This document shows positions 3,048 to 56,311 of a DNA stretch of 64,000 nucleotides, piece by piece (the first letter of the stretch is position 1; each line of letters starts with the position of its first letter). The stretch spans positions 1 to 64,000 of IMG/VR virus record IMGVR_UViG_3300031992_000008; one strand, written 5' to 3'. This DNA is from a virus (taxonomy: Duplodnaviria > Heunggongvirae > Uroviricota > Caudoviricetes). A program made the translations under genes and the position numbers. A model generated the notes under the pieces. The model was not told the origin of the DNA and made no database searches. It saw nothing but the letters and a program-made list of their open reading frames with translations.

Positions 3048-3056
3048 CCAAACTAT

Positions 3057-3086
3057 AAGGCATTTCTATAATGCCTTTCTTTTTTG
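3057..3086 (+). terminator. intrinsic terminator
   Basis: aaggcat ttctata atgcctt then TCTTTTTT. Confidence 0.65.
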
Positions 3087-3120
3087 GTTAGTATATTATA
3101 GTATGTACATTAAACCTTAA
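3083..3120 (+). promoter_or_regulatory. early-class promoter box (GTATATTATAGTATGTACATTAAACC)
   Basis: Motif conservation. Confidence 0.55.
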
Positions 3121-3128
3121 GGAGACCT

Positions 3129-3671
3129 ATGTACACTATTAGTAGATTTATCGACGACATAGAAAAAGCTCTCTATCCCTATCATCTCGGAGAGTTCAAA
3201 GTACATGAAGAAAAGAACAGCTGCGGATACCTAGAAGGATCTACAGATCTTAAGAAAGTTTCGTATATATGGTATGGCAAAGAGATTGCCAATATTATCC
3301 TTGACACTGACTTAGGTACGACTATCGTACATGCTAGAAAAAGTCTCGTTAAAGACGATTTGCATATTATTCATCCTTTCTTCTTGAAGAGATATGTAAG
3401 AAAGTGCATGAAGTATGAACTCAAGTGGATCAAAGGTAGAAACAAGATCTGGGATATCTTTGATGACATCCACAGACCAAGACTAGACATGAATATTCCC
3501 TATAAAGAGAATAAGGAGATTGTGCTATCTCGAATTGCAGAGAAGTGCTTTGAAGAATATGCACAAAATGGTGAGCAACTAGGAATCTTCCTGAAAAAGA
3601 TTGCGAAATATGTTGCCCCGAATTGGACAGTAGACATCAATGTTACAACTAACCCTAAAGAGGATCAATAG
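3129..3671 (+). CDS. hypothetical protein (180 aa)
   Basis: AAGGAG SD; first gene of operon after promoter box at 3091. Confidence 0.65.
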   Translation: MYTISRFIDDIEKALYPYHLGEFKVHEEKNSCGYLEGSTDLKKVSYIWYGKEIANIILDTDLGTTIVHARKSLVKDDLHIIHPFFLKRYVRKCMKYELKWIKGRNKIWDIFDDIHRPRLDMNIPYKENKEIVLSRIAEKCFEEYAQNGEQLGIFLKKIAKYVAPNWTVDINVTTNPKEDQ

Positions 3672-11468: not shown

Positions 11469-12025
11469 TGAAACTAATGCCTTCTTTTTGCATGGAAGAA
11501 AAACATGGTCTAACACTTGGATTCTGTCTTCTTATATTGTTCATCATTGTGCCATGTATCGCTGCTAGCTGTGCCTGTGAATCATGCCAAGATGAATACC
11601 ATAAGAAGAAATCTGTAGAAGATAATTCCAGTGGTGTGACTGCTAGCAAGGTCAGCAAGATGACTAGATATGTGCATATTGGAGACATTGCAGTAATGTG
11701 CATCAATGGAAGAAGTGATGTCAATGTGTTAAATATTAAGACAGGAGATTACGTGCTAATCTCAGATACTAAGATAGACGTCTATCGCACTATTGGCACT
11801 GCGGTGAAGAAGCTATTTCCGGAAAGAAACATGGAAGACTACTACATCAAGGACGAATGTCTATCAAGCCTCAGAAAATCATGCCATCCTGTGAGTAATT
11901 GTATTAACGGAAATTTGTCTAGAGCAGATTGTCAAACAACCTGTAACCTGTACGATATCCCAGTACCATCTGACCGAGGAAACAAGGATGAACTAGTAGG
12001 AATGTACGGTATAACCATAAGGTAG
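11468..12025 (+). CDS. secreted/membrane-anchored cysteine-rich protein (185 aa)
   Basis: Hydrophobic signal-like N-terminus; about 12 Cys; TAATG overlap. Confidence 0.55.
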   Translation: MKLMPSFCMEEKHGLTLGFCLLILFIIVPCIAASCACESCQDEYHKKKSVEDNSSGVTASKVSKMTRYVHIGDIAVMCINGRSDVNVLNIKTGDYVLISDTKIDVYRTIGTAVKKLFPERNMEDYYIKDECLSSLRKSCHPVSNCINGNLSRADCQTTCNLYDIPVPSDRGNKDELVGMYGITIR

Positions 12026-12029
12026 AAAT

Positions 12030-12524
12030 ATGCCACAAATATTTGCTGGTTTCTTTATATTATTCTTGTTATCCGTAACTATCGCCTTTGGTGTGCCAAG
12101 CGGCGAAGAGTTTCGTGAAAAACACGCTCATGGAGAATTTCTAATGAGCGATAGCTTTACGAGCATTGGAAAAGCTGAACTGCGATATAACGATGACAAT
12201 GAGCCTACTATGAAATTCTATTCAAATGATTTTTCATACAAGTTCTCTGTCACCGATGGGAGTGCCAAGAGCACCATTGAACTGATGGACAAGTTGGTAT
12301 TCCAGTTGTATCACAAGAATCAGCCTTACTATCTTTCATATGAGTGCACGAGATTTCTAAGATCCGTTGAAGGAAAGAAGTCGTACTGTAAAACAGACAA
12401 CTCTTTACCGATGTGCAGAGCCGAGTGTGAGATCTATCAAGGCGATGGAATTCCTGACAAAGCTAAGTATATCGTGGAAAAACGAATAGCAAAGGATATA
12501 ACGAATGAAAATCAAGTACTTTGA
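12030..12524 (+). CDS. secreted protein with signal peptide (164 aa)
   Basis: N-terminal MPQIFAGFFILFLLSVTIAFG signal-like; AAGGTAG SD. Confidence 0.55.
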   Translation: MPQIFAGFFILFLLSVTIAFGVPSGEEFREKHAHGEFLMSDSFTSIGKAELRYNDDNEPTMKFYSNDFSYKFSVTDGSAKSTIELMDKLVFQLYHKNQPYYLSYECTRFLRSVEGKKSYCKTDNSLPMCRAECEIYQGDGIPDKAKYIVEKRIAKDITNENQVL

Positions 12525-15151: not shown

Positions 15152-16747
15152 ATGGAAATCAATGCACTTACTATCAGTGCCATTGCAGTGGGAGCTCTCC
15201 TGCTGCTCCTCGCCTTCATTTTCATTATTGGATACGTTAAAGCTCCGCCTGATACCGCATATGTCATTTCCGGTATCCGTAAACAGCCTCGCTTCCTCAT
15301 TGGTCGAGCTGGTGTTCGTATTCCGTTCTTGGAACAGAAGGACGAGCTTGTACTCAAGGCTATTCAAGTCGATGTAAATACGTCCGATGAAATTCCCACA
15401 GCGGATTTCATCAATATTACTGTCGATGCAAACGTCAACGTACAAGTTGATACTGAACTAGAAAAGAAAGAAGAAGAACGTTCTGGATTGCTTCAGAAAG
15501 CCGCTAGAAACTTCCTCAATCTTAAGGAAAAAGACATCATGGCAATGGTTCGACCAGTTCTTGAAGGTAATGTTCGAGAAATCGTTGGCAAGATGAATCT
15601 CAAAGCTATGGTGAATGATCGCCAGAAATTCTCTACTCTGGTTTCTGAAAACGTGCAGCCTGACCTTGCTGCCATGGGCTTAAAGCTCGTGTCTTTTAAT
15701 GTGCAGAACTTTAAGGACAAGGAAGGCACTATTAGGAACATGGGTATCGACAATATTGAAGCAATCCGTAAGGATGCTGAAATCGCAAAGTCAAATGCCC
15801 AGAGAGATATTCGCATTGCTAAGGCTGAAGCTGACAATGAAGCCAGCATTGCAGAAGTAAAGTCTAAAACTGCAGTCGCCGAACGTGAGACTGATCTTGC
15901 TATCAAGAAGGCAGACCTCAAGAAGAAGTCTGATATCCAAGAAGCAATCGCCGATGCTGCTAAGGGCATCGAAGCCGCTAATCAGCAGAAAACCTTGAAT
16001 ATCACGGAAGCCGAAGCTGAAACTGCAAAGCAGATGAAGCTCATCGAAGTCCGTCAGGAAGAAGCTAATGTTACCGAAAAGGAACTTGTTGCCAAGGTGA
16101 TTCGTCCGGCTGAAGCTGCAAAGCAAGCCACTATCATTAAGGCTGAAGGTGAACAGAAGGCTAAGCTCATTGCTGCTGAAACCAACCTTGAAACCACCAA
16201 GAAGAATGCTGATGCTGAAAAGTATCAGCGTGAACGTGAAGCTGAAGTCAAGCTGTTCAATGAACAGAAGGATGCGGAGGCCGAGCGCTACAAACAAGAG
16301 CAAAACGCCGAAGGTGTCAAGGCTATGGCTGACGCTGACCTTAAGACTGCTCTTGCTAAGGCTCAAGGTGTTGAAGCTAACGGTAAGGCTGAAGCTGCTG
16401 CTATCGAAGCTAAGGGTCTCGCCGAAGCCGAAGCCAAGGACAAGATGGCTGATGCTATGGCTAAGTTTGGCGATGCCGCTAAGCAAGACCTTACTCTTGA
16501 AACCGTTAAGGCGTTTGTTGCTGTTCTTCCGGAAGTTGCTGGTAACATTACCAAGCACTTCGAGAAGGTTGGTAACTACACTATCTACGGTGAAGGTGGC
16601 GGTGCTAAGCTGGTTGGTGATGCAACTCAGGCAATGTCTCAGATTATTGCATCCGTCAAGGAAGCAACTGGTCTTGATGCCGCAGGTATCTTGAACAGCT
16701 TCCTTGGTAGCCGTACTGCACTCGCAGTAGCTGACAAGAAAGAGTAA
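15152..16747 (+). CDS. flotillin (SPFH/band-7 domain, FloT/YuaG-like), 531 aa
   Basis: N-terminal TM helix then YVKAPPDTAYVISG SPFH start; VSFNVQNFKDKEGT..IAKAEADNEA..KGLAEAEAKDKMADAMAKFG aligns almost residue-for-residue with B. subtilis FloT; EA-rich coiled coil. Confidence 0.9.
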   Translation: MEINALTISAIAVGALLLLLAFIFIIGYVKAPPDTAYVISGIRKQPRFLIGRAGVRIPFLEQKDELVLKAIQVDVNTSDEIPTADFINITVDANVNVQVDTELEKKEEERSGLLQKAARNFLNLKEKDIMAMVRPVLEGNVREIVGKMNLKAMVNDRQKFSTLVSENVQPDLAAMGLKLVSFNVQNFKDKEGTIRNMGIDNIEAIRKDAEIAKSNAQRDIRIAKAEADNEASIAEVKSKTAVAERETDLAIKKADLKKKSDIQEAIADAAKGIEAANQQKTLNITEAEAETAKQMKLIEVRQEEANVTEKELVAKVIRPAEAAKQATIIKAEGEQKAKLIAAETNLETTKKNADAEKYQREREAEVKLFNEQKDAEAERYKQEQNAEGVKAMADADLKTALAKAQGVEANGKAEAAAIEAKGLAEAEAKDKMADAMAKFGDAAKQDLTLETVKAFVAVLPEVAGNITKHFEKVGNYTIYGEGGGAKLVGDATQAMSQIIASVKEATGLDAAGILNSFLGSRTALAVADKKE

Positions 16748-16781
16748 AACTAAAAGATTTTACCCATAAAACCTCGATGGG

Positions 16782-16816
16782 GAGAGGCTCTAGAAATAGA
16801 GTCTCTCTTTTTTTCG
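16782..16816 (+). terminator. intrinsic terminator after flotillin gene
   Basis: gagaggctct agaaat agagtctctc then TTTTTTT. Confidence 0.7.
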
Positions 16817-16879
16817 TAAAATTCTATGCTCCGACATTATATTATTAATGGCCTTATAATCCTATAAGACAGTGTTACT

Positions 16880-17087
16880 AGCCCACAAAGACTAGTGCAA
16901 CCGTCATATCTAACCGGAAGATATGACTAACTGTGCGTTTGTTCCATTCGCACATAAAAGGAAAATGGATATTATTGAGACAACGGTACTGTCTCATAGG
17001 TGATCCGCATCTTATGTATATTTGATGCGATAAGGTCACACCGAACGGATAACGGTAAATATTATCCAAAAGGCAAGGAGGTACTTC
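16880..17087 (+). ncRNA. multi-hairpin structured region (candidate ncRNA or riboregulatory leader of tiny ORF)
   Basis: Five consecutive stems: gtcatatct/agatatgac, tgtgcg/cgcaca, tgagaca/tgtctca, cgcatc/gatgcg, ggataa/ttatcc. Confidence 0.3.
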
Positions 17088-17180
17088 ATGTACAGATACC
17101 GCTTCTTCCTCAGCAACCTCGACGTAGTCGAAGTCTATGCAGACTCATACGCCGATGCCATCGCTGAATTCCTCGTCTAA
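17088..17180 (+). CDS. tiny ORF (30 aa), not in ORF track
   Basis: Strong AAGGAGGT SD 7 nt upstream; GC3-rich codons like highly expressed genes; preceded by a multi-hairpin leader. Confidence 0.3.
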   Translation: MYRYRFFLSNLDVVEVYADSYADAIAEFLV

Positions 17181-17234
17181 AAAAGACAGGAATAGGAACT
17201 CTCGTGCGCAGACAGCGAGAATAAATAATTAGGC

Positions 17235-17264
17235 GAGAATCTCTAAAGATGGCTTAGAGAATCT
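17235..17264. repeat. 11-bp inverted repeat (GAGAATCTCTAA n7 TTAGAGAATCT), 1 mismatch
   Basis: Seen in sequence; 80 nt upstream of DUF1874 gene. Confidence 0.6.
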
Positions 17265-17345
17265 AGGGAATGCAAAACCACTTAACTGTGGCTTCTCGAA
17301 ACTGTGCTGGCCCAATGACCAGAAACCGTTACAAAGAGGTGTCCT

Positions 17346-17639
17346 ATGACAACAATTTGTAATGCCTTCAGCCTCCAGATGATGAAGGAATTCCCTGCGA
17401 CAATCACGATTGAAGAAATCGCTGAACCGTCCAAGGAAGAACTTTCGAAGATGGATTCGGCTGTTGGTCATGCTGACACTGCAGCTGTCCTTGGTGTGCC
17501 GTTCGTTCGCAAGAACGTTCAGCTCGAAAAAGGCGATGTTGTGGTTGTCGCTCAGCTTACTGGAGGCCGTCTCCCGGAAGGTTCTAGAACCCTACCGGAA
17601 GGCTTTGCCTTTAAGTGGCTGAAGGTGACCATCGGCTGA
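17346..17639 (+). CDS. DUF1874 (STIV B116-like) family protein
   Basis: MTTICNAFSLQM... and SAVGHADTAAVLG resemble the DUF1874 signature (..NS.L., SAIGHEsTA.LL); AGAGGTG SD. Confidence 0.5.
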   Translation: MTTICNAFSLQMMKEFPATITIEEIAEPSKEELSKMDSAVGHADTAAVLGVPFVRKNVQLEKGDVVVVAQLTGGRLPEGSRTLPEGFAFKWLKVTIG

Positions 17640-17688
17640 TAGCTGAAGAGCTACGCACGAATACAATGCCAATGTATAAACGTGCGAA

Positions 17689-17732
17689 TAAAAAAAAGGA
17701 TAGCAGCCTATGCTGCGTCCTTTTCTTTTTTC
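17689..17732. terminator. bidirectional terminator between convergent genes
   Basis: A8 run, hairpin aggatagcagc ctat gctgcgtcct, T-rich run. Confidence 0.5.
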
Positions 17733-18010
17733 CTAGCTTTAGATCTCCTGCAAGCTTCTAGATACTTAGCATATCTCACAGGATCCTTTTTCATAGCTTC
17801 ACGCTTCTTAGCATTACGCTCACGTTCTTTTTCCTTAAACAATGGATCAGTAGCCTTTCTATGGTCATATGATTTCTTTGATCTTACGGCATCTGGAGTT
17901 CTGCCTTTGCTCTTCCGTTTCTTTTTTACAGGAGCTGAAATGTATGCATTAATAAATGATAAAGAGGATTCTGTCAGTCGTGCTTTTGTATCCTTGTATA
18001 TGTCGCTCAT
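17708..18010 (-). CDS. small highly basic Lys/Arg-rich protein (100 aa), possible DNA-binding or internal virion protein
   Basis: AGGAAGG SD; KKKRKSKGR..KKREAMKK..RRSKARKKEK; immediately downstream of capsid-like gene. Confidence 0.6.
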   Translation of the reverse strand: MSDIYKDTKARLTESSLSFINAYISAPVKKKRKSKGRTPDAVRSKKSYDHRKATDPLFKEKERERNAKKREAMKKDPVRYAKYLEACRRSKARKKEKDAA

Positions 18011-18013
18011 AAT

Positions 18014-18050
18014 ACCTTCCTATAATAGTCTCATTCTTATATATTTTTTC
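18014..18050 (-). promoter_or_regulatory. early-like promoter box on minus strand (TATATAAGAATGAGACTATTATAGG)
   Basis: Resembles GTATATAATTTAATAGACT box; precedes SD of basic-protein gene. Confidence 0.35.
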
Positions 18051-18063
18051 TTTTTTATAAATA

Positions 18064-18109
18064 AAAAGAAAAAAAAAATAAATGGCCTAGACCGAAGTCT
18101 AGACCATTT
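18064..18109 (-). terminator. strong intrinsic terminator after capsid-like gene (12-bp stem, CGAA/TTCG tetraloop, T10 on minus strand)
   Basis: aaatggcctagac cgaa gtctagaccattt preceded by A13 on plus strand. Confidence 0.75.
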
Positions 18110-18125
18110 AAAGTCTTCACAACAA

Positions 18126-19964
18126 TTAGTGGATGAACGTTTCCGTAGGCAAGTACGGGCTCGTTCCAGCAAACGAATAGAAATTCGCGCTATTGTTGGT
18201 AATTGTCACACGACCAGCACCCGGAAGCACGTCAACGTAAGCGTAACGGCGAGAGGTGAGGATCGTCGGAACATAGGTATTGCGCGGGCTGTTGTAGCCA
18301 GAGCCAGCCTGTTCGAGCATGAAGCTATAGGTGTACAGCTTGTAAGTCATCTGATCCTGAACGGTCGGGATGAAGAGCACACGGATAGCACCCTGCGGGA
18401 TGTTCGGGGAGGACACAACCTTCCAGCTGTTGATGCCCTGATACTGACCGAAGGCAATGTTAGCATTCACGCCAGCATATTCGGACTGACCGTTACCCTG
18501 ATAGACCCAGTTGATTTCCGGCACGAGGGCGGCATCCAACGGGTTGCAAGCGGCAACGAAGTAACCCTGTTCATAATGGTACATGTTGATGATGCTCATA
18601 GAGAGATGGTCGAGCACCTTGCCAAGCATCTTGGGCCATTCAGCCGGGTTCAGCTGGTAGTTACCAACGGGCTTAGCAGAGAATGCACGAACGAAGTCAC
18701 CATTCGGAGCCTGTTCGATAGCATCATCGATAACTTCATCCATGAAGTTCACACCATCCAAGTCCATCTTCTGAGCGAGGAAGCTAGAGAGGATTTCGAC
18801 GAGCTTGGAGACACCATTCAGAGTGAACATACGGAGCAAATCCGTGATGTATTCATTCGGAACCGGAGCTTCAAGGTGTTCGCCAGTACCGATGTGGATT
18901 TCCTTATCGCGGATATCGAAGCCAACCTGAAGCGTGCTGTTGTTCATAACAGAGGACACGAAGGCCTTGATCATCACGAAATTGAGCTTGTCGCCCTGAT
19001 CCATGAGAGTGAGACGACCAGTCTTCACGTCAACGTCACCGTAGACGGAGTCAGTGAGGGTCACAATCACAGTACCAGCTTCGCCACCAACGCAAGTGGC
19101 ATCAACTTCGACATCGAGCGAGATCACACCCTTGATGCCACCACGACGAGTACCGCATTCGATCTTGCAGTTCTTGACGAGGTCATTGGCAGTGAGGGCT
19201 TCACCATTGAGGGTGAGTTCGGTAGCAAGTTCAGTAGCAACGCCATTGTAGAACACGGTGTCGCCAGCGGCAGGAGCCTTGAACTGAGCGCAAATGATAG
19301 AAACATTCACGTCAACTTCATCGTTGTCCTTAACCATGGCAAGAGCGTCAGAATACTTCTGAGTGACAGTGCCATAGGTGGTCGTGGTCTTGTCATTACC
19401 GTATTCGTCCACATCCTTACCAGTGAGGAGGTTCATGGAGAAGCAACGGTTCGTGAACTTGAACTTCACATCTTCAGCAAGGCGAACCTTAGAGACAGCG
19501 GTATCGATGTCCATGAGGTTTTCAGGCACATAGTGCTTGTTGCCCTGCAAGTCCTTGAGCCAAGGATGGAGGTAGTTGATGGTGAACTTCGGCTTTTCGA
19601 CAGCTTCGGTCGGGAGAGCCTTGTTCATAGCGGTACGAGCCCAGCTCTTACGGAGCATCGGGGTCTGAAGGAAGGACATCGGAGAAACAGTACCGAGAGC
19701 AGCTTCTTCAAGAGCTTCAAGGCGAGAGGCTTCAGCGATGGTCTTGAACTGCTCGGCTTCTTCGTCATTAAGACCCTGAGCGAGCATTTCAGTATAACGA
19801 CCAAAGAGGGAGTTGTCGGACATCACATCTTTAAAGTCGTCGGCGTTGAACACGTTGATGTTGCTAGCGGAGAATTCTTCAGCCACTTCACGAAGAGTAG
19901 AGGTAAAGGAATCACTCACAGCAGACACCTTCGAGGACGGTTGCATGTAAGAAATGTTAGACAT
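18126..19964 (-). CDS. major capsid-like structural protein (612 aa); function tentative (alternative: nuclear-shell-like protein)
   Basis: Strongest codon/GC bias in window; AAGGAAG SD; followed by 12-bp-stem CGAA-tetraloop terminator; Ala/Glu-rich N-terminal segment resembling a cleavable propeptide. Confidence 0.6.
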   Translation of the reverse strand: MSNISYMQPSSKVSAVSDSFTSTLREVAEEFSASNINVFNADDFKDVMSDNSLFGRYTEMLAQGLNDEEAEQFKTIAEASRLEALEEAALGTVSPMSFLQTPMLRKSWARTAMNKALPTEAVEKPKFTINYLHPWLKDLQGNKHYVPENLMDIDTAVSKVRLAEDVKFKFTNRCFSMNLLTGKDVDEYGNDKTTTTYGTVTQKYSDALAMVKDNDEVDVNVSIICAQFKAPAAGDTVFYNGVATELATELTLNGEALTANDLVKNCKIECGTRRGGIKGVISLDVEVDATCVGGEAGTVIVTLTDSVYGDVDVKTGRLTLMDQGDKLNFVMIKAFVSSVMNNSTLQVGFDIRDKEIHIGTGEHLEAPVPNEYITDLLRMFTLNGVSKLVEILSSFLAQKMDLDGVNFMDEVIDDAIEQAPNGDFVRAFSAKPVGNYQLNPAEWPKMLGKVLDHLSMSIINMYHYEQGYFVAACNPLDAALVPEINWVYQGNGQSEYAGVNANIAFGQYQGINSWKVVSSPNIPQGAIRVLFIPTVQDQMTYKLYTYSFMLEQAGSGYNSPRNTYVPTILTSRRYAYVDVLPGAGRVTITNNSANFYSFAGTSPYLPTETFIH

Positions 19965-20045
19965 TGTTTGTCTTCCTTATTTTTAGGTGAAACAGAGCCA
20001 AAACATAAAGTTATCTTGACTCAGAAACGAAAAAACCTATTTATA

Positions 20046-20057
20046 CTAGGATCCTAG
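20046..20057. repeat. perfect 12-bp palindrome CTAGGATCCTAG in divergent promoter region
   Basis: Between capsid-like (minus) and rusA (plus). Confidence 0.6.
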
Positions 20058-27669: not shown

Positions 27670-28059
27670 ATGGACTTGAAAGAATTTGAAAACCTCTCCG
27701 TAGAGGATAAGGAAATCCTTATGGAGATCCTTAATGATACTATGGATATCTTTAGAGAATACCCTGACGAAGAAGAACCTGAAAAGGTTGAAGCTCAAGA
27801 AGGCGTAATGATTAAGCGCATGAACTGGACTACTCAGGGCGTGATAGATAAGAAGGTGTCTAAGGTCTGTGTGCTTTTGGCTAAAGCTAATGGCGATCCA
27901 TTGTACAATAGATTCAAAGTCTTTAGAGATAAATGGAGATTCTTCAGAGAGAAGATTCGTCTCAAATACGGTGGAAGAGCCAGAGCTATTGTACTTTCCA
28001 ATGGTGGTGTGAATGCTACCGATCTTGGAGAAGCTGTGAAGGCTGCTCTGCATAAATAA
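27670..28059 (+). CDS. hypothetical protein (129 aa)
   Basis: GAGGA SD before ATG 27670. Confidence 0.55.
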   Translation: MDLKEFENLSVEDKEILMEILNDTMDIFREYPDEEEPEKVEAQEGVMIKRMNWTTQGVIDKKVSKVCVLLAKANGDPLYNRFKVFRDKWRFFREKIRLKYGGRARAIVLSNGGVNATDLGEAVKAALHK

Positions 28060-28106
28060 TACTAGTGTCTCTAAACAGAGACACTTAATTTAACCAAAGG
28101 AACCAT

Positions 28107-28859
28107 ATGGAACTTGAATACTCTAATTTTGATGAGGAAATCGAAGCTCTGAAGAAAGAAGCAAACGAGCTAGATTCCCTGTATAAAGACTCTGAAATAC
28201 TTTTAAAGAATGTGCAGAACTCTAGGAGCCGTGGAAGTCTAGCATTCTCCCATCTCCAGACTGGAAACTTGATTGCAATTAAAAATGCCAAAATATCCGC
28301 TATCAAAGGCATAATGACACTCAAGGAAAAGAAATTCAAACAGCAGCTACAGAAGTTTGCTCTTGATGAAGCTAGCAATAGTGGTGGTTTCTCTGTTGGT
28401 GAGCTTGTTGATATCTTGTCTGCCAATAACGTATCGTATAATCCTAAGAATTTCACTGATGCTGAAGTTGTTGAAGAGGACTTTGAAGCCAAGGTCAAAG
28501 AGCAGCTTGAGAAGTCTAAGGAAGTTGCCAAAGCTTCTTATGCGGAGAATGATGGTGGAGACTTTACTCCTGAAGAATATGAAGCTCCTGAACCAGAGCA
28601 GGATCCGGATACTATCGCAGTTGAAGACCTTGTGGACATTCCTGTTAAGACTAGCGAATACGAAATTGTTGCTGAAGCTAAGACTGGAAAGCTTCATGTG
28701 ATCGACCTTGCAGCTAGCCATGATGATATCATTGTCGAAATGGATAAGAACCTAGTTGGTATAAATGAGGACGAGTTAGCTGAAATGGATACCAGTGGTA
28801 TAATCCCTAAGGCTAAATTCAGAGGCAAGGATATCGAAGTAGTCGAGATTGAGACTTAA
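28107..28859 (+). CDS. hypothetical acidic protein (250 aa)
   Basis: AAAGGAA SD; terminator downstream. Confidence 0.65.
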   Translation: MELEYSNFDEEIEALKKEANELDSLYKDSEILLKNVQNSRSRGSLAFSHLQTGNLIAIKNAKISAIKGIMTLKEKKFKQQLQKFALDEASNSGGFSVGELVDILSANNVSYNPKNFTDAEVVEEDFEAKVKEQLEKSKEVAKASYAENDGGDFTPEEYEAPEPEQDPDTIAVEDLVDIPVKTSEYEIVAEAKTGKLHVIDLAASHDDIIVEMDKNLVGINEDELAEMDTSGIIPKAKFRGKDIEVVEIET

Positions 28860-28862
28860 ATT

Positions 28863-28891
28863 AATGGTGTACTTAGGTACACCATTTTTTA
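28863..28891 (+). terminator. intrinsic terminator
   Basis: aatggtgtac ttag gtacaccatt then TTTT. Confidence 0.65.
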
Positions 28892-28932
28892 ATCTTCTTA
28901 ACTAATAAATGCACGAAGATAGAGAGGACTAT

Positions 28933-30843
28933 ATGAGCGATAAGTACAAACTAGTTTCAGTCAAAAAATTGACTACAAAGACTGGTCTGAATTATTACAA
29001 TAATGGTGTACTGACCGTATACTACAAGAACGGTAAGCGTACATATGAATTTGATGAAGATCCGACTGTGAGATTCCATGTCTCTAAGCCTGAATTTGTA
29101 GAGAAGCATGGAGACAATCCTTACGTCGTTCCTCTGGAAGAAACTGAAGAGATCGAATGCAAGTATAAGGAAGTCTATGAAGCCATTATTGACTATCAGG
29201 CTACATTTGATCCTGAAGCTGCTGTAAAGAATTCGAAGTTGCTTGATAGCTTTAGAAAGCGTAAAGTTAGTCCCGAGAATTTCTTTCTCTGCCCATTCGT
29301 CCATGGCGCTGACGTTGATCTCACTGACCACTATATTCGCAGGTTCAACGATGAAAAAATCGCCCCTAATGGTGGAGAAGACCAAGATGTTCGTCTGAAC
29401 AAGGTGTTCTGGGATATTGAATGCGATAACTACATCGTAAGACGATTTGTTGAAGCGGATGAAGCTATCACTCCTATTAATGCTATATCTTGTTTCGATA
29501 GTAGAACGGCTACGCTCGTATTGAGATTCCTTGATGATACCATCGAAGGACAGTATGTGGCAAAGAATCCTCAGATTGACAAGTTCAAACACGAGATCGA
29601 TGCTATTACTGCGAAGTATGAAGCCGAGTGGAACGAAATTCAGACTAAAATCTTCAAAGAAATAAAGAAGCCACATATCAATGTCGAAATCAAGTTCTAT
29701 GGGTATGAAATAGATCTTATTCAGGATCACTTCAATGATCTCAACTACAGGTTTGGTGCAGACGTTGTCATAGCATTCAACCATGGCTTTGACTGGGGTT
29801 TCACTATCAAGCGTCTTGAGAATCTTGGGTTCGATCCGGGCGATATAATTGCTCCTAAAGAATTTCCGAAGGATTATCGTAGGGCTTACTACATTGCGGA
29901 CAGATTTGCAAAGGATATTAAGAAGCGCCATGACGCATTCTATATTCCTGCTTTCTATTGCATTATCGATATGCAGCAGAACTATTATGCAATCCGTAAC
30001 ATGAGCCCAGAAGACTATACTCTTGACTGGTTGGCTGAAAGTGTTATCGGTGTCCGTAAGGTTGAACACGATGATATTGAAATGGCTGACTTCCCATACG
30101 AAGACTACGAGTTGTTCTGTAAATACTCAGGACAGGATACTCTGGTTATGTACTGGATTGAAGAGAAAGTCAGTGACGTTGATACGATCATGCTATTCAG
30201 AGGTCTAACACATACTCGTGAGAACAAGGTGTTGACCAAGACTACAATGCTTCGTAACTTCATCGAGTGGTTCTTTATCAACAAGTGCGATCTGGTGCTG
30301 TCTAACAACCGTACAAGATTGTTCAATAAGATCTACGACAAGAAGCGAGCCAACGGAGATAATCCTATCAAGTATCCAGAGCTAGAGCCGTATAGGAAAG
30401 ATGCTATGGGCGCCGACTATACCGAAGTAGGCGAAGCTGAAGATGAAGACGAATTGTTAAATGATGATCTTGAAGAAATCGAGTCTCAGGTTACAAAGAT
30501 TCAAGAAGAAAAGAAAGTCAAGTTCAAGGGTGCATTCGTGGCTGACCCTAATCTTCTTATCGCAAACGGTATTAAGATTTTGGGTAAGGCTAGTACATTG
30601 ATCTATGACTTTGTATGTGACTCTGACTTGTCTTCTCTATATCCGTCTATTAAGATTGCGTGGAACCTCTTTATCACGACTATGCTTGGAAAGATTCTTC
30701 CGAAGAGCAATACGAATGATATCGAATACTCTGCAACTCTTGCCAATTATATCATGACTAGAAACGATATCAAAATTGGCGAACAATATTTTGGACTTCC
30801 GTCGCACACGGAATGGACAAAGATGATTCTCTCTCGTGCATAA
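28933..30843 (+). CDS. family-B DNA polymerase, N-terminal part only (3'-5' exonuclease domain plus motif A)
   Basis: Exo I VFWDIECD, Exo II NHGFDWGFTI, Exo III YSGQDTLVMY, motif A DFVCDSDLSSLYPSI; ORF stops about 65 aa after motif A; motifs B and C absent. Confidence 0.7.
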   Translation: MSDKYKLVSVKKLTTKTGLNYYNNGVLTVYYKNGKRTYEFDEDPTVRFHVSKPEFVEKHGDNPYVVPLEETEEIECKYKEVYEAIIDYQATFDPEAAVKNSKLLDSFRKRKVSPENFFLCPFVHGADVDLTDHYIRRFNDEKIAPNGGEDQDVRLNKVFWDIECDNYIVRRFVEADEAITPINAISCFDSRTATLVLRFLDDTIEGQYVAKNPQIDKFKHEIDAITAKYEAEWNEIQTKIFKEIKKPHINVEIKFYGYEIDLIQDHFNDLNYRFGADVVIAFNHGFDWGFTIKRLENLGFDPGDIIAPKEFPKDYRRAYYIADRFAKDIKKRHDAFYIPAFYCIIDMQQNYYAIRNMSPEDYTLDWLAESVIGVRKVEHDDIEMADFPYEDYELFCKYSGQDTLVMYWIEEKVSDVDTIMLFRGLTHTRENKVLTKTTMLRNFIEWFFINKCDLVLSNNRTRLFNKIYDKKRANGDNPIKYPELEPYRKDAMGADYTEVGEAEDEDELLNDDLEEIESQVTKIQEEKKVKFKGAFVADPNLLIANGIKILGKASTLIYDFVCDSDLSSLYPSIKIAWNLFITTMLGKILPKSNTNDIEYSATLANYIMTRNDIKIGEQYFGLPSHTEWTKMILSRA

Positions 30844-30846
30844 AAA

Positions 30847-30884
30847 TTATCCACTAGGCTTTTGCTTAGTGGATAATTTTATAT
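30847..30884 (+). terminator. intrinsic terminator after polymerase fragment
   Basis: attatccactagg cttttg cttagtggataat then TTTAT. Confidence 0.55.
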
Positions 30885-30916
30885 AAAGATATAGCCTTAA
30901 TTAAGGAGTCTATTAT

Positions 30917-31048
30917 AATGGCCACAGAAATAGAAGAAAAAGAAGACGAAAGAAGCTTCGAAGAAATTGAAAAAGAAGCCAATGAAAATTTCAATACACG
31001 AATCGATACACTCTTAGAAGAGGTACTTTATGGAATCTAGCGCACTGA
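30917..31048 (+). CDS. small acidic ORF (43 aa), doubtful
   Basis: AAGGAG SD 7 nt upstream; MATEIEEKEDERSFEEIEKEANENF...; overlaps next gene start. Confidence 0.25.
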
Positions 31049-31938
31049 GCGAAATGGCCCATACTGCGGAAATGGTTAATCCGTCTCCGGAGACAACGCC
31101 ATTTGTCAGATCTTCAGCATTGTTCAAGTTTGTGCTGAAGATGAAGAAGAAAATTAGTGATGAACACTTCGATTATGTCGAGAAGTGTCTGAAGACTATC
31201 GCTGATCCCAATAACAACGCTAATAATTGCGTCATGTTTACGGACATTGAAAATGAAACGATGGATCAGCCGTTGTGGTATTTCGGTCTTAACAAGGAAA
31301 CATTAGAACCTGAACCGATTGATGTTATGAAGTATCCCGATTACAGGACGTATTCTTTGATCGTCATTAGTGGCGGTAAGAATATTTGTATTCCCGGAAA
31401 CTGGCGTGATACGATTATCTGTCCGTTCATTGATACGAAGTCAATCTTCAAGAACATCAAGAAAGCTAAAGACTATAATCCGGTCTTTACAAATACGAAA
31501 GCTTTGGAATCTGAAAGCAGTGGAAGACTTACTCTCTTCTATACTAGAGAGATTCCGATGATTTTCGACATGACAGATTGGAATCTTAAGCATGGTTCCT
31601 TTACAGATGAAGCAGGTCATATCCATATCTCTCTGGTTGGCGCTCAAGGTGTCGTTGTTAAGTTCCGAGAATTAGTGTCGGATGCTGATAAGTATGCTGA
31701 CTATATTTTCAAGAATGACAATCTCGATCATCCTGAAAGATTCTTCTTCCCTGAAAACGTTCCCGATGGTTCTGAATTTGCAAAATACAGATATCTTCCG
31801 GGCGTAGTCATGCGAAAGGATGCCAAAGGACACATTTTCCCATCTGTGGAAATTCCGTGTATCTCCGGTATCAACAGTGATCTCTACACTGAAGAATCTG
31901 AAGATATGCAGGAATACTGTGTCTTACTGAGGACTTAG
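31030..31938 (+). CDS. hypothetical protein (302 aa)
   Basis: GAAGG SD. Confidence 0.6.
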   Translation: MESSALSEMAHTAEMVNPSPETTPFVRSSALFKFVLKMKKKISDEHFDYVEKCLKTIADPNNNANNCVMFTDIENETMDQPLWYFGLNKETLEPEPIDVMKYPDYRTYSLIVISGGKNICIPGNWRDTIICPFIDTKSIFKNIKKAKDYNPVFTNTKALESESSGRLTLFYTREIPMIFDMTDWNLKHGSFTDEAGHIHISLVGAQGVVVKFRELVSDADKYADYIFKNDNLDHPERFFFPENVPDGSEFAKYRYLPGVVMRKDAKGHIFPSVEIPCISGINSDLYTEESEDMQEYCVLLRT

Positions 31939-32025
31939 CGAAAAAGTCTTGTGGGGGTGTTAGCAATAATACCCTTACTTTTTTGTATATGGAACTTTCT
32001 AATGAAATTTATACAAGAGGCTGAC

Positions 32026-34845: not shown

Positions 34846-34885
34846 AATTAAATTCAGTATACTAATGTATACTGAATTTTTTATT
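34846..34885. terminator. bidirectional terminator
   Basis: aattcagtatac taatg tatactgaatt with flanking A and T runs. Confidence 0.65.
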
Positions 34886-35615
34886 AGTCAATGTCAGGAA
34901 CCAAGGATACTGGCAGAAGATCCGAATCTGTGACGGTATCAGACTTTATGCCAGCACCAATCAAGAATGTATCAAAAGTATTCAATGCAACTTTCTCGAA
35001 CACTGAAGATCCTTCCAAGACATCCTTGAGGTTTACATAACCGTCAGTCTGGATCTTCTCATACATAACTCTCTTGGCACCCATGTTGTCGCTTCGTGCT
35101 CCCATGAGCTCCTGAAGAGTAGCATCGTTCTGCTGAAGGATCAATGCATAGGATTCAACGTCGGAGTTTCTTGCAACCTTAGAATCAGAAGTCACAGTAC
35201 CAGTGAGCTGGTTTCTCTTATCAATGTCAAGGGTCACACCAGACTTATGAGTAACAACTTGTTCAAGTCTCTTGATGGAAAGATACAATACTGGAACTCT
35301 GGTAGCAGTTCTAATGAAGTCTCCATTGCTGTTCTTCTGGTCTCTGTAGTAGACGTATTCCTCCATAGGAATATTTAGAATCTTCAGAGCCTTTTCAATC
35401 TGACCGAAGTCCGGTTCATTCTTGAACGGAAGAACTTCAAGTCTAAAATAAGCGTCCTTATCGGCAAGGAACTTGTTCATCCAAGAATTAAACTGAGCAT
35501 CACTCATTTTATTAAACATGGTTCTATACTTTTCAGTATTCTCACCAGATTTGTCTAGAGTGCTCATCACGCTATAAACAAGGTCTTCTACTTTCTTTCT
35601 TTTTCCAGTACTCAT
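34884..35615 (-). CDS. hypothetical protein (243 aa)
   Basis: AAAGGAG SD before internal ATG 35615; divergent from terminase gene. Confidence 0.6.
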   Translation of the reverse strand: MSTGKRKKVEDLVYSVMSTLDKSGENTEKYRTMFNKMSDAQFNSWMNKFLADKDAYFRLEVLPFKNEPDFGQIEKALKILNIPMEEYVYYRDQKNSNGDFIRTATRVPVLYLSIKRLEQVVTHKSGVTLDIDKRNQLTGTVTSDSKVARNSDVESYALILQQNDATLQELMGARSDNMGAKRVMYEKIQTDGYVNLKDVLEGSSVFEKVALNTFDTFLIGAGIKSDTVTDSDLLPVSLVPDID

Positions 35616-35677
35616 AAGGAAACTCCTTTCTATTATTGAGTTCATAGCCGAACTAGTTATTGAACTAAGGAGCAATT

Positions 35678-40668: not shown

Positions 40669-43600
40669 ATGGCTGCAGATTCTCTACCGAAATATATGCA
40701 CCCGCATTCGAGTGCACGTATTATCGATAATGCCGTTCTGACTGTCTCGTCTAGCGGCTTGACCAATATGTTCATTGCCCTTGAAGCTGAAAAAGGTATG
40801 CCGAATGAAGCCACCTATATCACTACCCAGAGTGAGTGGATTTTCAACTTTGGCGAACCCAACTACAGCAAGTATGGACAAGGAGCATTGAACGCTCTTA
40901 ACTACATCAACGCAGGTGGTGGTGCATGGGTGATCCGTGTTGTGCCTGATGATGAAAGATTCGCTTCGCTCTCTCTTGGCATCGGCTATCGTGCAAACCA
41001 GCCCTTTACCAATGATGAAGAGAAGTACAGACGTCTTGAAATGACTTCTGAACAGATTAAGTTGTGGAATGCTGCCCAGACTGATGATACCCTCAAGTAT
41101 GCAATCGATAAGAAGTCTGGCAACTTTGCTATTCTTCCGTTGTTCTACATCGAAGAAAATGGCAACATCAACGCTGCTTTGAAGCTCCAGACTCTTGACG
41201 AAATTGAATCTTACAAGCTCAAGAACACTGATGCTAGCAAGACCATCAATGCCGTTGCTAAGAAGAATGTGATTACCTATTCTAATCCGTTCATCGAAGT
41301 CTCCGGTGTCTTTGATCCTGAAAACGAAGAACTGAGATTCCTCGCAGACAGAGCTTATACCGAATTCGTTGAAGGTCAGGAAATCGGTGGTATTGAATTC
41401 GGCAATGTTGCTGAAGAAAACTGCAAGGCCTATATCCGTATCGATAAGTACTTTGCTACTGATGCAAATGATGACACGATCAAGGATAAGACTGGCAGTG
41501 TCAAGACTTTTGACTACTATGATGCCGCTTACAAGGCTGCTCAGTCCAGCAATCAGAATGCTGAAGAAAGCGATGGTTCTGGTGAATTCGATCCGGCTGA
41601 TCATGTGTTTGCGTTCTCTGGTACGATCCGTATCTATTCCGAAGCTGCCGATGGACAGCCGTTTGGCGAAGTGATCTATGATGTGCTCGCAGCTATTTTC
41701 GGTACCGATGCACAGACCGTAACAAAGGGTAAGGCAGAATTCAATACTGAACTCAATGGCGACGCTAGCTTCTCTGATGATATTCAGAAGGGTAAGAAGC
41801 ATACTGCTAAGTGGCTTCAGGAAAACCGTAATGAATACTCCAACGCTAGAACTGTCTACAAGAAAGTCAAGCCTAGCGAATTCTTCGGTAGCGCCAATAC
41901 GATCGTTAATACCAAGATTCTTCTGAATATTGGTACTCCCGATTCTCAGACTTGGGATTACTCCTTCGAAGTTTACAAGGAAAGTCTGCCCGGTCAGTAC
42001 ATTCCTGTCGCATCTTCTCTCATTGACAACAGCACTGCCTTTACGGAAGTAGAGCTCACTGAATGGAATGCCCTGCATGGTACATTCTATAAGCTCGGCG
42101 GTAAGGCTGATCCTGAAAGCGATTTTGAAGATGTCGTTGACAGCACTCAGCAGAAGATTGTTAACAAAGAACCGTCTACGGGTGCTACCAAGAACTCCAC
42201 GCTTTACTATGTGAAGTATGTGACGACTGGTGAACCTGTCTACTCGACCTCTATTACTGAATCTGAAGCTTACAGATTCAACAGAGTTAAGGCTACATCT
42301 GAAGATGAAACCGTGACCTTGTCTACTCCGGCTGAATTCCCGGCTTCTGCTATGAACACCAAGTATGCAAGCCTCTTGAATACTAAGGTGTCCTTCAGCT
42401 CCGATGTTTCTAAGGAAGGTCACTGGGAAGCTACTGTTCCTGAAGGCGCTACCCTGACGGATGCAGTTGACTTCATCAACTTCTTCTTCAGCGCTCCTTC
42501 GATGATTGAAACTAAGGACAACTCTAACGCTGGTGAATTCCTCGTTAACGTTTCCTTCAGCGAAAATGCTTACATCGGTGAAAGCGAATATGTGTCTATC
42601 AAGGGTACTGCTCTTGGAAACCTCTTCAAGCGTGCTGACGATGGTGCTATTCAGGACAATAACAATGAAAATGTGACGGATGATACCAATGAAGGTATCT
42701 CTGGTACTTCTACTGGCGAATCTGACGAACCGAAGTACATTCTTCGTACTGACATCAAGCCGTCCGAAGTTCCTAGCACTGTTGCTAAGTTCATTGTCAA
42801 CGGTAGCTTCCAGCCTGTCGAAATCGACAACATTCCGGCATCTGCTCTTCTCTGCTTGCTTGCTGATAAGACCAACAGAGAAAATGGTACTGCTGAACTC
42901 AAGACCGATCTTGGCGAAAATTTCGAATTCGAATATGCCAATACTTGTGTCTTGCTGGCTGGAATCGATTCTGTTGCTGGTTTCAATGGCACGATTACGC
43001 TTGCTTTTGTTTCTGACTCTATCGAAAACTTGGCTATCAAGGCTTATGACGAAGCTGTTAGCGGTGGTGAAACCTCCATTACGGCTACTCAGATCCCCGG
43101 TGAAAAGGTTCCGTACGTCAGATACTCTGACAACTTTGATGGTTCTATCTTTGAACCTAACTATGACTACATTGAACGTATCTATGATACCGTTGGTCTC
43201 GTGACTACGACTTACACGGCCTTCGATTATCCTGAAAATGCCAACTACTTCCCGTACAATATCCAAGATGGTGTAAAGGTGAAGACCCCGGAAATCTGGG
43301 CTGGCATTGAAAGTGCTAAGGAAGGCTACTCTGTCGCTGCTGCTAGAGACGAAATCAAGGATGTTGATCTTCAGGATCTCAAGCTCGATAAGACTTGCTT
43401 TGCTGAATTCTGCCGCTTCTTGCCCAAGGGCTCTGGTAAGTGGTACAACAGACTCGGTGTGTCGCTCTCCTACGATGACAACTTCGACGGTACCTATCCT
43501 GATTGGAGTATGTTCAAGCTCACTGTGTTCGAAAGAAGTAACGGTGAAGAGATCTCTCGTGAACAGTTCGCTGTCTCGTTGGATCCTGATGCTGTGTCCG

Positions 43601-44937
43601 CTACTAAGGAAAGTCTCTTCATTGAAGACGTCGTTAACACCTACTCGTCTTACCTGACTTGTGTGGTGAACTATGATAACCTCCGCAACTTCATTGAAAC
43701 GAAGTTTGCTGTGGTTGACGACAACAACAAGCCCGTCAAGGATGAAGATGACAATGAAATCTTCGTTAGCGTTGATACCGTCATCAAGTACATCTTCGGA
43801 CGCATCGATCTCGATGATTTCAATAAGAGAACGTTCGGCGATGACTATCAGGTTAACACCCTCAGCAAGTATGCATTTACTTCGTTGATGAGCGTTAACG
43901 GCGTGGATGAAGATGGCTGTGCCTTCGACACCTCTCGCTACAACAGTGATAGTCTCTATGAATACACTGAACCCTTCAATTCGTTCTGGTTCTTCACGAC
44001 TGTTTCCTCTGCTGCTTCGCTCTACTTGGGCGGTGGCTCCTATGGTAACGGTTGGGGCTATGAATACGAAGACGAAGAGGGTAATCCGCAGCATACTAGC
44101 ACGCTGACTCAGGCTCTCGTAAGAGCATACAGTGGTGTAACTGATCCGTTCATCACTAACACGAACCTCTGTGAATTCGACCTCATGTTCGATGCTAACT
44201 ACGAAACTGACGTTCGTACTGCTATGACGAAGCTGGCCTCTGAAACTCGTCAGGACTGTATCGCACTCCTTGACCAAGGCTTGTCTATCGCCAATGCTAC
44301 ACAGGCTATCGATAAGAGAAAGAACGAAGAAAACTTCGACACCTTCTATGCTTCCATCTTTACGCAGCATCTTGTTGTGAACGATGTGTGGTCTGGTAAG
44401 GTCATCAAGGTTACTCCGACATTCTTCCTTGCTTCGAAGATTCCTGCTAACGATACTGCTAACGGCAAGACTATGAACTTCGTTGGCCCCCGTCGTGGTA
44501 CTATCGGTGGATTCCGTTCTATTTCGTTCATGCCTACAGCTTACGAAATGAGCGAACTCTACAAGGCTCAGGTGAACTACATCGAACGTGACGCTCTTGG
44601 TGTGTTCTTTGCTACTGAACTCACGTCTCAGACTAAGAATACTCCGTTGACCCTTATCCATGCTGTTCGCGCTATCTTGGCTCTGAAGAGAGACTTCCTC
44701 AAGATCAGCCGTAACTACCGTAGCGAATATGCTACTGGTGCTGTTCAGGCTAACTTGCTGGGCGAACTCAACGCTTGTGCTGCCGAATACATCCTTCAGG
44801 GTGCGTTCAAGTACATCACGCCTAAGATTGCCTCTACGGACTACGATGTCCAGCAGAGAATCTGCCGCATTGATGTGTCTGTGGCCTTCGTTGACATCAT
44901 GGAAAGATTCGTCTTCTCCTTCGTTGTTGAACGCTAA
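40669..44937 (+). CDS. giant acidic virion structural protein (1422 aa), likely tail-associated
   Basis: Strong AAGGAGG SD; class-2 promoter element upstream; terminator downstream; followed by baseplate spike gene. Confidence 0.8.
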   Translation: MAADSLPKYMHPHSSARIIDNAVLTVSSSGLTNMFIALEAEKGMPNEATYITTQSEWIFNFGEPNYSKYGQGALNALNYINAGGGAWVIRVVPDDERFASLSLGIGYRANQPFTNDEEKYRRLEMTSEQIKLWNAAQTDDTLKYAIDKKSGNFAILPLFYIEENGNINAALKLQTLDEIESYKLKNTDASKTINAVAKKNVITYSNPFIEVSGVFDPENEELRFLADRAYTEFVEGQEIGGIEFGNVAEENCKAYIRIDKYFATDANDDTIKDKTGSVKTFDYYDAAYKAAQSSNQNAEESDGSGEFDPADHVFAFSGTIRIYSEAADGQPFGEVIYDVLAAIFGTDAQTVTKGKAEFNTELNGDASFSDDIQKGKKHTAKWLQENRNEYSNARTVYKKVKPSEFFGSANTIVNTKILLNIGTPDSQTWDYSFEVYKESLPGQYIPVASSLIDNSTAFTEVELTEWNALHGTFYKLGGKADPESDFEDVVDSTQQKIVNKEPSTGATKNSTLYYVKYVTTGEPVYSTSITESEAYRFNRVKATSEDETVTLSTPAEFPASAMNTKYASLLNTKVSFSSDVSKEGHWEATVPEGATLTDAVDFINFFFSAPSMIETKDNSNAGEFLVNVSFSENAYIGESEYVSIKGTALGNLFKRADDGAIQDNNNENVTDDTNEGISGTSTGESDEPKYILRTDIKPSEVPSTVAKFIVNGSFQPVEIDNIPASALLCLLADKTNRENGTAELKTDLGENFEFEYANTCVLLAGIDSVAGFNGTITLAFVSDSIENLAIKAYDEAVSGGETSITATQIPGEKVPYVRYSDNFDGSIFEPNYDYIERIYDTVGLVTTTYTAFDYPENANYFPYNIQDGVKVKTPEIWAGIESAKEGYSVAAARDEIKDVDLQDLKLDKTCFAEFCRFLPKGSGKWYNRLGVSLSYDDNFDGTYPDWSMFKLTVFERSNGEEISREQFAVSLDPDAVSATKESLFIEDVVNTYSSYLTCVVNYDNLRNFIETKFAVVDDNNKPVKDEDDNEIFVSVDTVIKYIFGRIDLDDFNKRTFGDDYQVNTLSKYAFTSLMSVNGVDEDGCAFDTSRYNSDSLYEYTEPFNSFWFFTTVSSAASLYLGGGSYGNGWGYEYEDEEGNPQHTSTLTQALVRAYSGVTDPFITNTNLCEFDLMFDANYETDVRTAMTKLASETRQDCIALLDQGLSIANATQAIDKRKNEENFDTFYASIFTQHLVVNDVWSGKVIKVTPTFFLASKIPANDTANGKTMNFVGPRRGTIGGFRSISFMPTAYEMSELYKAQVNYIERDALGVFFATELTSQTKNTPLTLIHAVRAILALKRDFLKISRNYRSEYATGAVQANLLGELNACAAEYILQGAFKYITPKIASTDYDVQQRICRIDVSVAFVDIMERFVFSFVVER

Positions 44938-44945
44938 AGTAAATA

Positions 44946-44984
44946 GAATTCCTGTATCCAAAAGATACAGGAATTTTATATTTT
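44946..44984 (+). terminator. intrinsic terminator after giant structural gene
   Basis: aattcctgtatc caaaa gatacaggaatt then TTATATTTT. Confidence 0.65.
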
Positions 44985-45010
44985 GAACTTTCAAATAGTA
45001 AGGAGTTACT

Positions 45011-56256: not shown

Positions 56257-56298
56257 TAGGAGAATCTTGGAAAGTTTCTGGGATTCTCCTATTTTAAC
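56257..56298 (+). terminator. stem-loop upstream of RNAP beta fragment (terminator or attenuator)
   Basis: taggagaatc ...16 nt... gattctccta then TTTTAACC; weak T-run. Confidence 0.35.
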
Positions 56299-56311
56299 CA
56301 AAGGAAGATAC

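Follow-up and report, generated by a model that had tools for sequence, protein, structure and literature searches.

Jumbo phages of the phiKZ/AR9/phiR1-37 type ('group 1') encode a divergent family-B DNA polymerase without a fused 3'-5' exonuclease, the latter being encoded elsewhere in the genome (Iyer et al., 2021; PMC7824862). The arrangement can be read from the annotation of AR9, in which g132 is labelled 'DnaQ-like 3'-5' exonuclease and partial catalytic domain' and g152, 15 kb away, 'DNA-polymerase catalytic subunit', and the same two-gene pairing is found in BpSp, MarsHill and JD-Fnp4, as well as in the published gene table of Staphylococcus phage DC4. Here we analyze a 64,000-nucleotide stretch of the virus record IMGVR_UViG_3300031992_000008 (the window) and find that it carries a divergent new member of this known arrangement, about 30% identical to any cultured phage. 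The split of its polymerase is real, but it is the standard, already annotated architecture of AR9/phiKZ-type jumbo phages, the group to which the window phage itself belongs. Besides the polymerase gene, the window encodes a large terminase, a prohead protease and two pieces of a split RNA polymerase, with more RNA polymerase subunits downstream in relatives, which bears out the link to a split RNA polymerase drawn in an earlier first-pass annotation of this DNA. The features discussed below are as follows.

28863-28886, + strand: terminator-like hairpin of the preceding gene, called by a simple terminator scan
28933-30843, + strand: N-terminal half (N-half) of a split family-B DNA polymerase, comprising an N-terminal domain, a 3'-5' exonuclease domain and the first palm segment with motif A
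29407-29430, + strand: Exo I motif FWDIECDN, residues 167-174 (D169, E171), by motif search; D169, I170 and E171 invariant in alignment A2
29773-29802, + strand: Exo II motif AFNHGFDWGF, residues 289-298 (N291, F294, D295), by motif search and alignment A2
30124-30153, + strand: Exo III motif YSGQDTLVMY, residues 406-415 (Y406, D410), by motif search and alignment A2
30520-30549, + strand: conserved palm strand KFKGAFVADP; the window has the intron-less allele at the GA/FV junction
30619-30651, + strand: polymerase motif A DSDLSSLYPSI, residues 571-581, with catalytic Asp D573, by motif search, alignment A2 and alignment to RB69 gp43
30652-30840, + strand: conserved 63-residue C-terminal tail past motif A, kept in AR9 g132 and phiR1-37 g170 and colinear with the fused homolog P0190
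30843-30880, + strand: 17-bp hairpin directly 3' of the stop codon, found by folding, a probable terminator
34884-35675, - strand: split RNA polymerase beta piece (PHROG 3233)
56267-58204, + strand: split RNA polymerase beta piece (PHROG 3295, PF00562)

The AR9-type phages (AR9/PBS1 with g132 and g152, likewise BpSp, Staphylococcus MarsHill, DC4 and S6, and Fusobacterium JD-Fnp) share the two-gene architecture of the window lineage in several respects: the first protein ends about 60-70 aa past motif A, its partner of about 640 aa carries motifs B, C and KKxY, the partner gene adjoins the gene for RNA polymerase beta', and the genome encodes split multisubunit RNA polymerases. The two differ in that the N-halves are only about 28-33% identical, the halves of the window lineage lie about 54 kb apart on opposite strands as against 10-28 kb in the cultured phages and 2 kb in phiR1-37, and the motif C context of the window lineage (VTDTDSVF and IFYTNN) departs from the AR9-type consensus. 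A similar likeness extends to phiR1-37 (g170 with g167) and to phiKZ-like phages (for example ChrisDB gp60), in which the exonuclease protein also ends soon after DxDL(S/T)xxYPS and a divergent family-B catalytic protein (PF20286, divDNApol) is separately encoded. In phiR1-37, unlike the window lineage, the two genes are divergent neighbors 1.7 kb apart and g167 (420 aa) ends before KKxY, whereas in the phiKZ-like phages the similarity of the N-half to the window protein is confined to the exonuclease domain (22-24% identity).

Polymerases made from two polypeptides are also known outside this group. In Aeromonas phage 25, the split gp43A and gp43B purify together and have activity (PMC2988022). 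Gene 43 of the T4-like Aeromonas phages 25 and 44RR resembles the present case as a phage family-B replicase built from two polypeptides and offers a precedent for non-covalent reassembly, but its two cistrons lie next to each other, with an untranslated spacer or a seg-type endonuclease gene in between, and their division is a recent event confined to that lineage. In Archaea, the PolB3 of Methanobacteriales is reportedly a split PolB (attributed to work by Kelman in 1999), and Choi is said to have described in 2006 a split-intein PolB in Nanoarchaeum equitans. Split archaeal PolB enzymes are known more generally, that of N. equitans being encoded by two non-adjacent genes (PMC4104785). Protein trans-splicing joins the two halves in N. 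equitans, whereas no intein pieces occur in polymerase halves of the window type, and while the archaeal splits have been attributed to intein events, there is no such trace here and the split is common to a very large viral family.

The N-half gene and its product

ORF calling on the window gave a longest reading frame of 644 aa at 28909-30843 (+), which closes with a TAA stop at 30841-30843. The true start is probably ATG 28933 rather than the first ATG at 28909, because a Shine-Dalgarno-like GAGAGG lies upstream of the former and none at the latter, and because the homology of relatives opens at residue 9 of the longer frame. The hairpin immediately after the stop codon (30843-30880) has a dG of -23.6 kcal/mol and a z of -6.6 against shuffled sequences, none of 200 shuffles being as stable; it is a probable terminator that the simple terminator scan did not call because its T-run sits within the stem. 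With a terminator-like hairpin on either side, the polymerase gene looks like its own, separate transcription unit.

The product carries every motif expected of the exonuclease of a family-B polymerase, namely Exo I (DxE), Exo II (Nx2-3(F/Y)D) and Exo III (Yx3D), followed by a motif A that fits the DxxSLYPS pattern (D573-LSSLYPS). It matches PHROG 3011 ('DNA polymerase') with an E value of 2e-40 and PHROG 262 with 7e-24, the latter match covering only profile positions 15-453 of 856, and by these profile comparisons its relationship to DNA polymerases is far above chance. The protein by itself is not a complete family-B polymerase, since motifs B (KxxxNSxYG), C (DTDS) and KKxY are absent from the ORF and from the whole window. 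Much of what the first-pass annotation described at this locus was reproduced: Exo I, II and III and motif A, all four located in ORF 28909-30843, stand in the right order; the ORF, said to stop about 65 aa past motif A, stops after 63 residues; and the terminator-like hairpin behind it is the 17-bp structure just described. Its proposal to align the protein to PF00136 and PF03104 succeeded in part, as PF00136 matches the motif A segment only, at 14.3 bits and under its gathering score of 23, and a Pfam search gave no match of PF03104 to the window N-half protein.

We searched the window for the missing C-terminal half (C-half) by several routes. A six-frame regular-expression scan found motifs B and C neither in the downstream ORFs nor anywhere in the window; it returned a lone KFPMNSLYG at about 39066, which we rejected as a motif B because it lies in an unrelated coiled-coil ORF that has no family match and matches no polymerase profile. 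Two C-half profiles run over the window by hmmsearch --max (filters off) gave best E values of 0.11 and 0.64, and tblastn with phiR1-37 g167 detected no C-half in the window. The earlier statement that motifs B and C are missing from the ORFs downstream is thus confirmed by regular expressions, tblastn and two profile HMMs, and the suggested check for an ORF with motifs B, C and KKRY elsewhere turned up none in any of the six frames of the 64-kb window.

The end point of the protein is a property of the family and not of this sequence. Homologs of the N-half fall into seven clusters (P0001-P0007) of 42-89% identity from independent metagenome assemblies, with lengths of 634-645 aa except for P0004, which is cut by an intron, and AR9 g132, phiR1-37 g170 and Erwinia phage ChrisDB gp60 stop at a common point 60-75 aa past motif A. 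Even in the phiKZ-like ChrisDB gp60, a motif A-like DADLTQAYPS stands about 75 residues before the C-terminus, and alignment A2, in which AR9 g132, phiR1-37 g170 and the metagenomic N-halves all end 60-70 residues past motif A, shows no variation at D573, L574, S575, S576, Y578 and P579 although the N-halves share only about 28% identity. In tblastn against GenBank phages, the window N-half matched only jumbo phages, at 22-33% identity, namely AR9/PBS1 (E 9e-32 for AR9), phiR1-37, BpSp, Staphylococcus S6/MarsHill, Fusobacterium JD-Fnp and phiKZ-like Erwinia phages; megablast of positions 28000-32000 against GenBank phages gave no match, and an exact look-up of the protein sequence gave no record. 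Because AR9-like and phiKZ-like phages have the same split point in common, the split point is ancient. A search of all cluster representatives counted 1234 clusters at 50% identity (E<1e-30) in this viral split-polymerase family.

The partner gene in close relatives

The partner is known from relatives whose N-half is 82-89% identical to that of the window, the window genome having been read to 64 kb. We reached it by walking downstream along the relatives' contigs in three 10-kb steps, the first to a 172-kb ENA contig (ERZ27257202, k141_5880544) that encodes an exact copy of the protein of window ORF 61190-61912, and the second and third on IMG/VR contig 3300028887_000068. On this 242,489-bp contig (IMGVR_UViG_3300028887_000068), the N-half lies at 224,813-227,518 and is 82% identical to the window protein, and a 645-aa ORF at 168,885-170,822 (locus L132, 10784-12721, - strand) encodes the C-half; the two are on opposite strands and 53,991 bp apart, with dozens of core genes between them. 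The 645-aa protein has its own start codon and scores an E value of 1e-156 with the C-half profile, 115.9 bits with PF20286 (divDNApol) and 31.8 bits with PF00136, and it displays motif B (KLVGNSEYG), motif C (VTDTDSVF) and KKxY (RNKKNYS). Its gene adjoins that for RNA polymerase beta' and lies near genes for a DnaB-like protein (PF20307, divDNAB) and SbcCD, as in AR9.

The same C-half gene is present on IMG/VR contig 3300031993_000014 and in ENA samples, among them ERZ27257202, in which exact copies of window proteins also occur, and C-half variants 79-90% identical occur in a JGI sample series that also holds N-half variants. By synteny, we expect the partner of the window phage itself at about 81-85 kb in window-equivalent coordinates, some 20 kb past the window end. 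Each of the cultured relatives that we examined has a separate C-half gene as well, namely AR9 g152, BpSp gp217, phiR1-37 g167, MarsHill gp108 and JD-Fnp4 gp117, at distances of 2-28 kb from the respective N-half genes.

Searches based on motif patterns or on C-half profiles passed over this lineage. Pattern scans of IMG/VR based on the C-half alignment A1 yielded 80 loci, but the window's lineage was not among them, because its motif context (VTDTDSVF and IFYTNN) falls outside the patterns. Two large searches of proteins by C-half profile gave the same set both times and missed the lineage owing to a word-index limit, and the search of all cluster representatives, which gave the family size and a fused form, did not give the lineage's partner.

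The break and the proposed two-subunit enzyme

Profile comparisons with solved structures indicate where the polymerase is divided. The N-half profile aligns with RB69 gp43 over residues 104-339 (the exonuclease, E 3e-15) and 404-434 (motif A), and the C-half profile aligns with residues 452-545 of Thermococcus gorgonarius (Tgo) PolB, the fingers with motif B running into motif C, and with RB69 residues 704-769, the KKRY/thumb region. These matches are complementary and, on this profile evidence, place the break at the junction of the palm and fingers domains. In the C-half, no invariant acidic residue stands ahead of the fingers, the first invariant columns being R110, K140, N144 and G148. 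Modelling of the N-half with AlphaFold2 gave a poor result (pLDDT 55 on average, and below 50 for residues 486-644), so that the fold of the motif A segment is drawn from sequence profiles only.

Natural fusions of the two halves exist in P0190 (1224 aa) and P0257 (1231 aa). In P0190, residues 40-558 match the N-half (hhalign probability 100%, E 3e-45) and residues 584-1224 the C-half, and PF03104, PF00136 and PF20286 all match this single chain.

We consider it very likely that the window ORF encodes one of the two subunits of a split family-B replicative polymerase typical of group 1 jumbo phages. In such an enzyme, the N-half subunit would contribute the N-terminal domain, an intact 3'-5' proofreading exonuclease and the first palm segment with Asp573 of motif A, and the second subunit (about 645 aa, PF20286 divDNApol) would contribute the fingers with motif B, the second palm segment with motif C (DTDS) and the thumb with KKxY. 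The two polypeptides would most likely assemble non-covalently into a heterodimer, with a two-metal active site formed by Asp573 of the N-half and the DTD of its partner. Physical association of the halves and a composite active site are probable on the strength of sequence conservation and analogy: with motif A invariant in the N-half and a partner that has no motif A, a heterodimer with a shared two-metal site is the simplest reading, and the natural fusions P0190 and P0257 support the halves as a single functional unit. As the break at the palm/fingers junction is common to a family of over 1200 clusters at 50% identity, the active site of this family should span two chains, a property for which we found no biochemical demonstration in the literature for any jumbo phage.

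Accordingly, we suggest that the gene be annotated as 'DNA polymerase, N-terminal (exonuclease and motif A) subunit' and not as a truncated or pseudogenised polymerase, and that the rare natural fusions could serve as single-chain references. Nothing here will surprise jumbo-phage specialists. For this group the split is not unusual: annotations of AR9, phiR1-37, BpSp and Staphylococcus jumbo phages already record it, and it was noted by Iyer et al. (2021). A further, speculative proposal, which we regard as rather unlikely, is that the palm is obligatorily assembled in trans and that the genes, far apart and in separate transcription units, gate DNA synthesis by when and where the subunits meet, for example through their temporal class or through import into a phage nucleus-like compartment. 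The split would then be a regulatory device and not a frozen accident, and the fused P0190 and P0257 would allow a direct test.

Alternative explanations for the divided gene

The first-pass annotation left the choice between a polymerase split into separate pieces and an exonuclease that had lost the palm half. The split is supported by the relatives' separate partner with motifs B, C and KKxY; a degenerate remnant is not supported, because motif A does not vary even among N-halves that share only about 28% identity, and because the partner itself lacks a motif A. A related possibility is that the N-half is a stand-alone proofreading exonuclease whose motif A segment serves for docking or is vestigial, the PF20286 protein being a self-sufficient polymerase. 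Iyer et al. (PMC7824862) treat the exonuclease protein as a stand-alone associate and not as part of the catalytic palm, GenBank labels speak of an 'exonuclease subunit' and a 'catalytic subunit', and Exo I-III are intact, all of which would fit. Nevertheless, the invariance of the six motif A residues from D573 to P579, which has a counterpart in the DADLTQAYPS kept by ChrisDB gp60, would be hard to reconcile with a vestige, and the C-half starts at the fingers with no invariant Asp upstream of motif B, so that a polymerase made of the C-half alone would have only one of the two elements by which a family-B palm binds metal. We therefore judge the stand-alone reading quite unlikely. Scarcely credible, in turn, is an artefact of sequencing or assembly, or a recent pseudogene, in which a frameshift or nonsense mutation truncates a full-length polymerase gene. 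Compared with canonical family-B enzymes, the ORF does end abruptly within the polymerase domain, and PHROG 262 is matched only over its first part; against this, the seven homolog clusters from independent assemblies and the cultured phages have proteins of equal length, a strong hairpin directly follows the stop codon, neither a downstream frame nor any other part of the window encodes fingers, palm or thumb, and in relatives the partner gene, 54 kb off and on the opposite strand, has a start codon of its own. We rejected a frameshift or pseudogene on the conserved end point of the homologs.

The subunit reading also has to be set against the possibility that the halves are joined by a split intein of the N. 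equitans type, or that a mobile element made the split and still marks it, both of which we rejected, along with the frameshift, and hold to be very improbable. The first-pass annotation had suggested that the split marks an intervening mobile element, and the split polymerase genes of T4-like phages are associated with homing endonuclease genes (PMC2988022). In the window lineage, about 54 kb of DNA that includes core genes separates the halves, which lie on opposite strands, and there is no intein signature, so that this suggestion is not borne out; neither did we find a gene split by an intervening element of the T4-like 43A/43B (mobE) type, the ORFs downstream of the N-half being unrelated. 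Neither half gives a Hint or intein Pfam match, and the fused 1224-aa homolog keeps both the tail of the N-half and the N-terminus of the C-half in colinear order, which indicates that these termini belong to the mature protein and are not intein pieces. The relatives do carry a mobile element, a group I intron with an HNH_3/AP2 endonuclease gene, and the proposed check for intein or HNH genes between the fragments in relatives accordingly found no intein and an HNH gene that lies inside the N-half gene. The window lacks this intron, whose place in the relatives is about 100 codons ahead of the split point, which argues against a role in the split.

The intron interrupts the N-half gene at the same codon in relatives of 82% identity (L004, L005, L015 and L016) and in one of 43% (L102), at the GA/FV junction between residues 542 and 543. 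The insert is about 800 nt long (792 nt) and encodes the endonuclease; in L016 it occupies 11610-12401, the upstream exon ending in U and the insert in G, and joining of the exons restores GAFVADP. The Rfam group I intron model matches the 3' part of the insert in both loci, at 24.5 and 26.5 bits and under the gathering score, and the N-half gene of the window is the intron-less allele.

Fused and split forms of the polymerase

Two homologous proteins carry the exonuclease and motif A part of the polymerase (N-half) joined directly to the part with motifs B, C and KKxY (C-half): P0190, with 1224 aa on a 3.8 kb Logan contig, and P0257, with 1231 aa on JGI contigs of up to 7.2 kb. These are natural one-chain versions of the split polymerase. 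Two further proteins are from cultured phages:

L141 2144-3922: Erwinia phage ChrisDB gp60, "putative B family DNA polymerase", 592 aa
L003 902-2164 (-): phiR1-37 g167, "catalytic subunit", 420 aa

Close to its C-terminus the phiKZ-like gp60, too, has a sequence resembling motif A, DADLTQAYPS, so that the palm/fingers split point appears to be common to phiKZ-like and AR9-like phages. The phiR1-37 protein g167 ends directly after NMKSE without reaching the KKxY/thumb region, yet residues 76-627 of its AR9 counterpart g152 are still matched by tblastn across about 2 kb in locus L072; the thumb may thus be encoded as a third piece, or a frameshift or an intron may separate it from g167. The assembly of one JGI sample has the C-half on two contigs, L139 (Ga0310690_10028216) and L140 (Ga0310690_10021495), which break at C-half residues 327 and 331, just ahead of motif C (D335), and these breaks may reflect a polymorphic insertion at the conserved motif C site.

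A group I intron in the N-half gene of relatives

The window's N-half allele has no intron; the gene is interrupted by a group I intron of ~800 nt in five relatives' loci (L016, L004, L005, L015 and L102), two of which are:

L016 11610-12401: group I intron in the N-half gene, IMGVR_UViG_3300028887_000068
L102 about 2612-3426: group I intron in the N-half gene

The intron sits between the codons for residues 542 and 543, at the GA|FV junction, with U as the last base of the 5' exon and G as its own last base, and it contains an HNH_3/AP2 endonuclease ORF of 176 aa. Matches to Rfam RF00028 scored 24.5 and 26.5 bits, both below the gathering score.

An ORF downstream of the C-half gene

At three loci an ORF of 252-253 aa lies immediately 3' of the C-half gene:

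L132 10007-10765 (-)
L135 11957-12715
L136 9070-9831

It had no match in Pfam or PHROG. Its C-terminal end, ...DQDLPF, resembles the acidic tip at the C-terminus of bacterial SSB, and its product may be a single-strand-binding or polymerase-accessory protein.

Other ORFs of the window

15152-16747 (+): SPFH/Band 7 and flotillin-domain protein, 531 aa (PF01145, 64 bits; PF15975, 31 bits)
17682-20057: ORF of 791 aa, no family match
40669-44937 (+): ORF of 1422 aa, no Pfam match
40684-44994 (-): ORF of 1436 aa
61986-63281 (-): HTH-like-repeat ORF
63390-63998 (-): HTH-like-repeat ORF

The phage genome carries the gene for the SPFH/Band 7 and flotillin-domain protein, which adjoins a stretch of raised G+C (16000-20000; 0.45-0.49 versus about 0.40) that holds the 791-aa ORF and also an antisense ORF of 612 aa. 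The 1422-aa ORF is fully overlapped by the 1436-aa ORF; presumably one or the other encodes a large structural protein, and the antisense member is probably a compositional artefact. Both HTH-like-repeat ORFs combine repeated HTH-like segments (PF01527 HTH_Tnp_1, 29 bits) with a long coiled-coil tail, and near the window's end they lie where the structural genes give way to the SbcCD/DnaB replication block, which is seen in locus L122.
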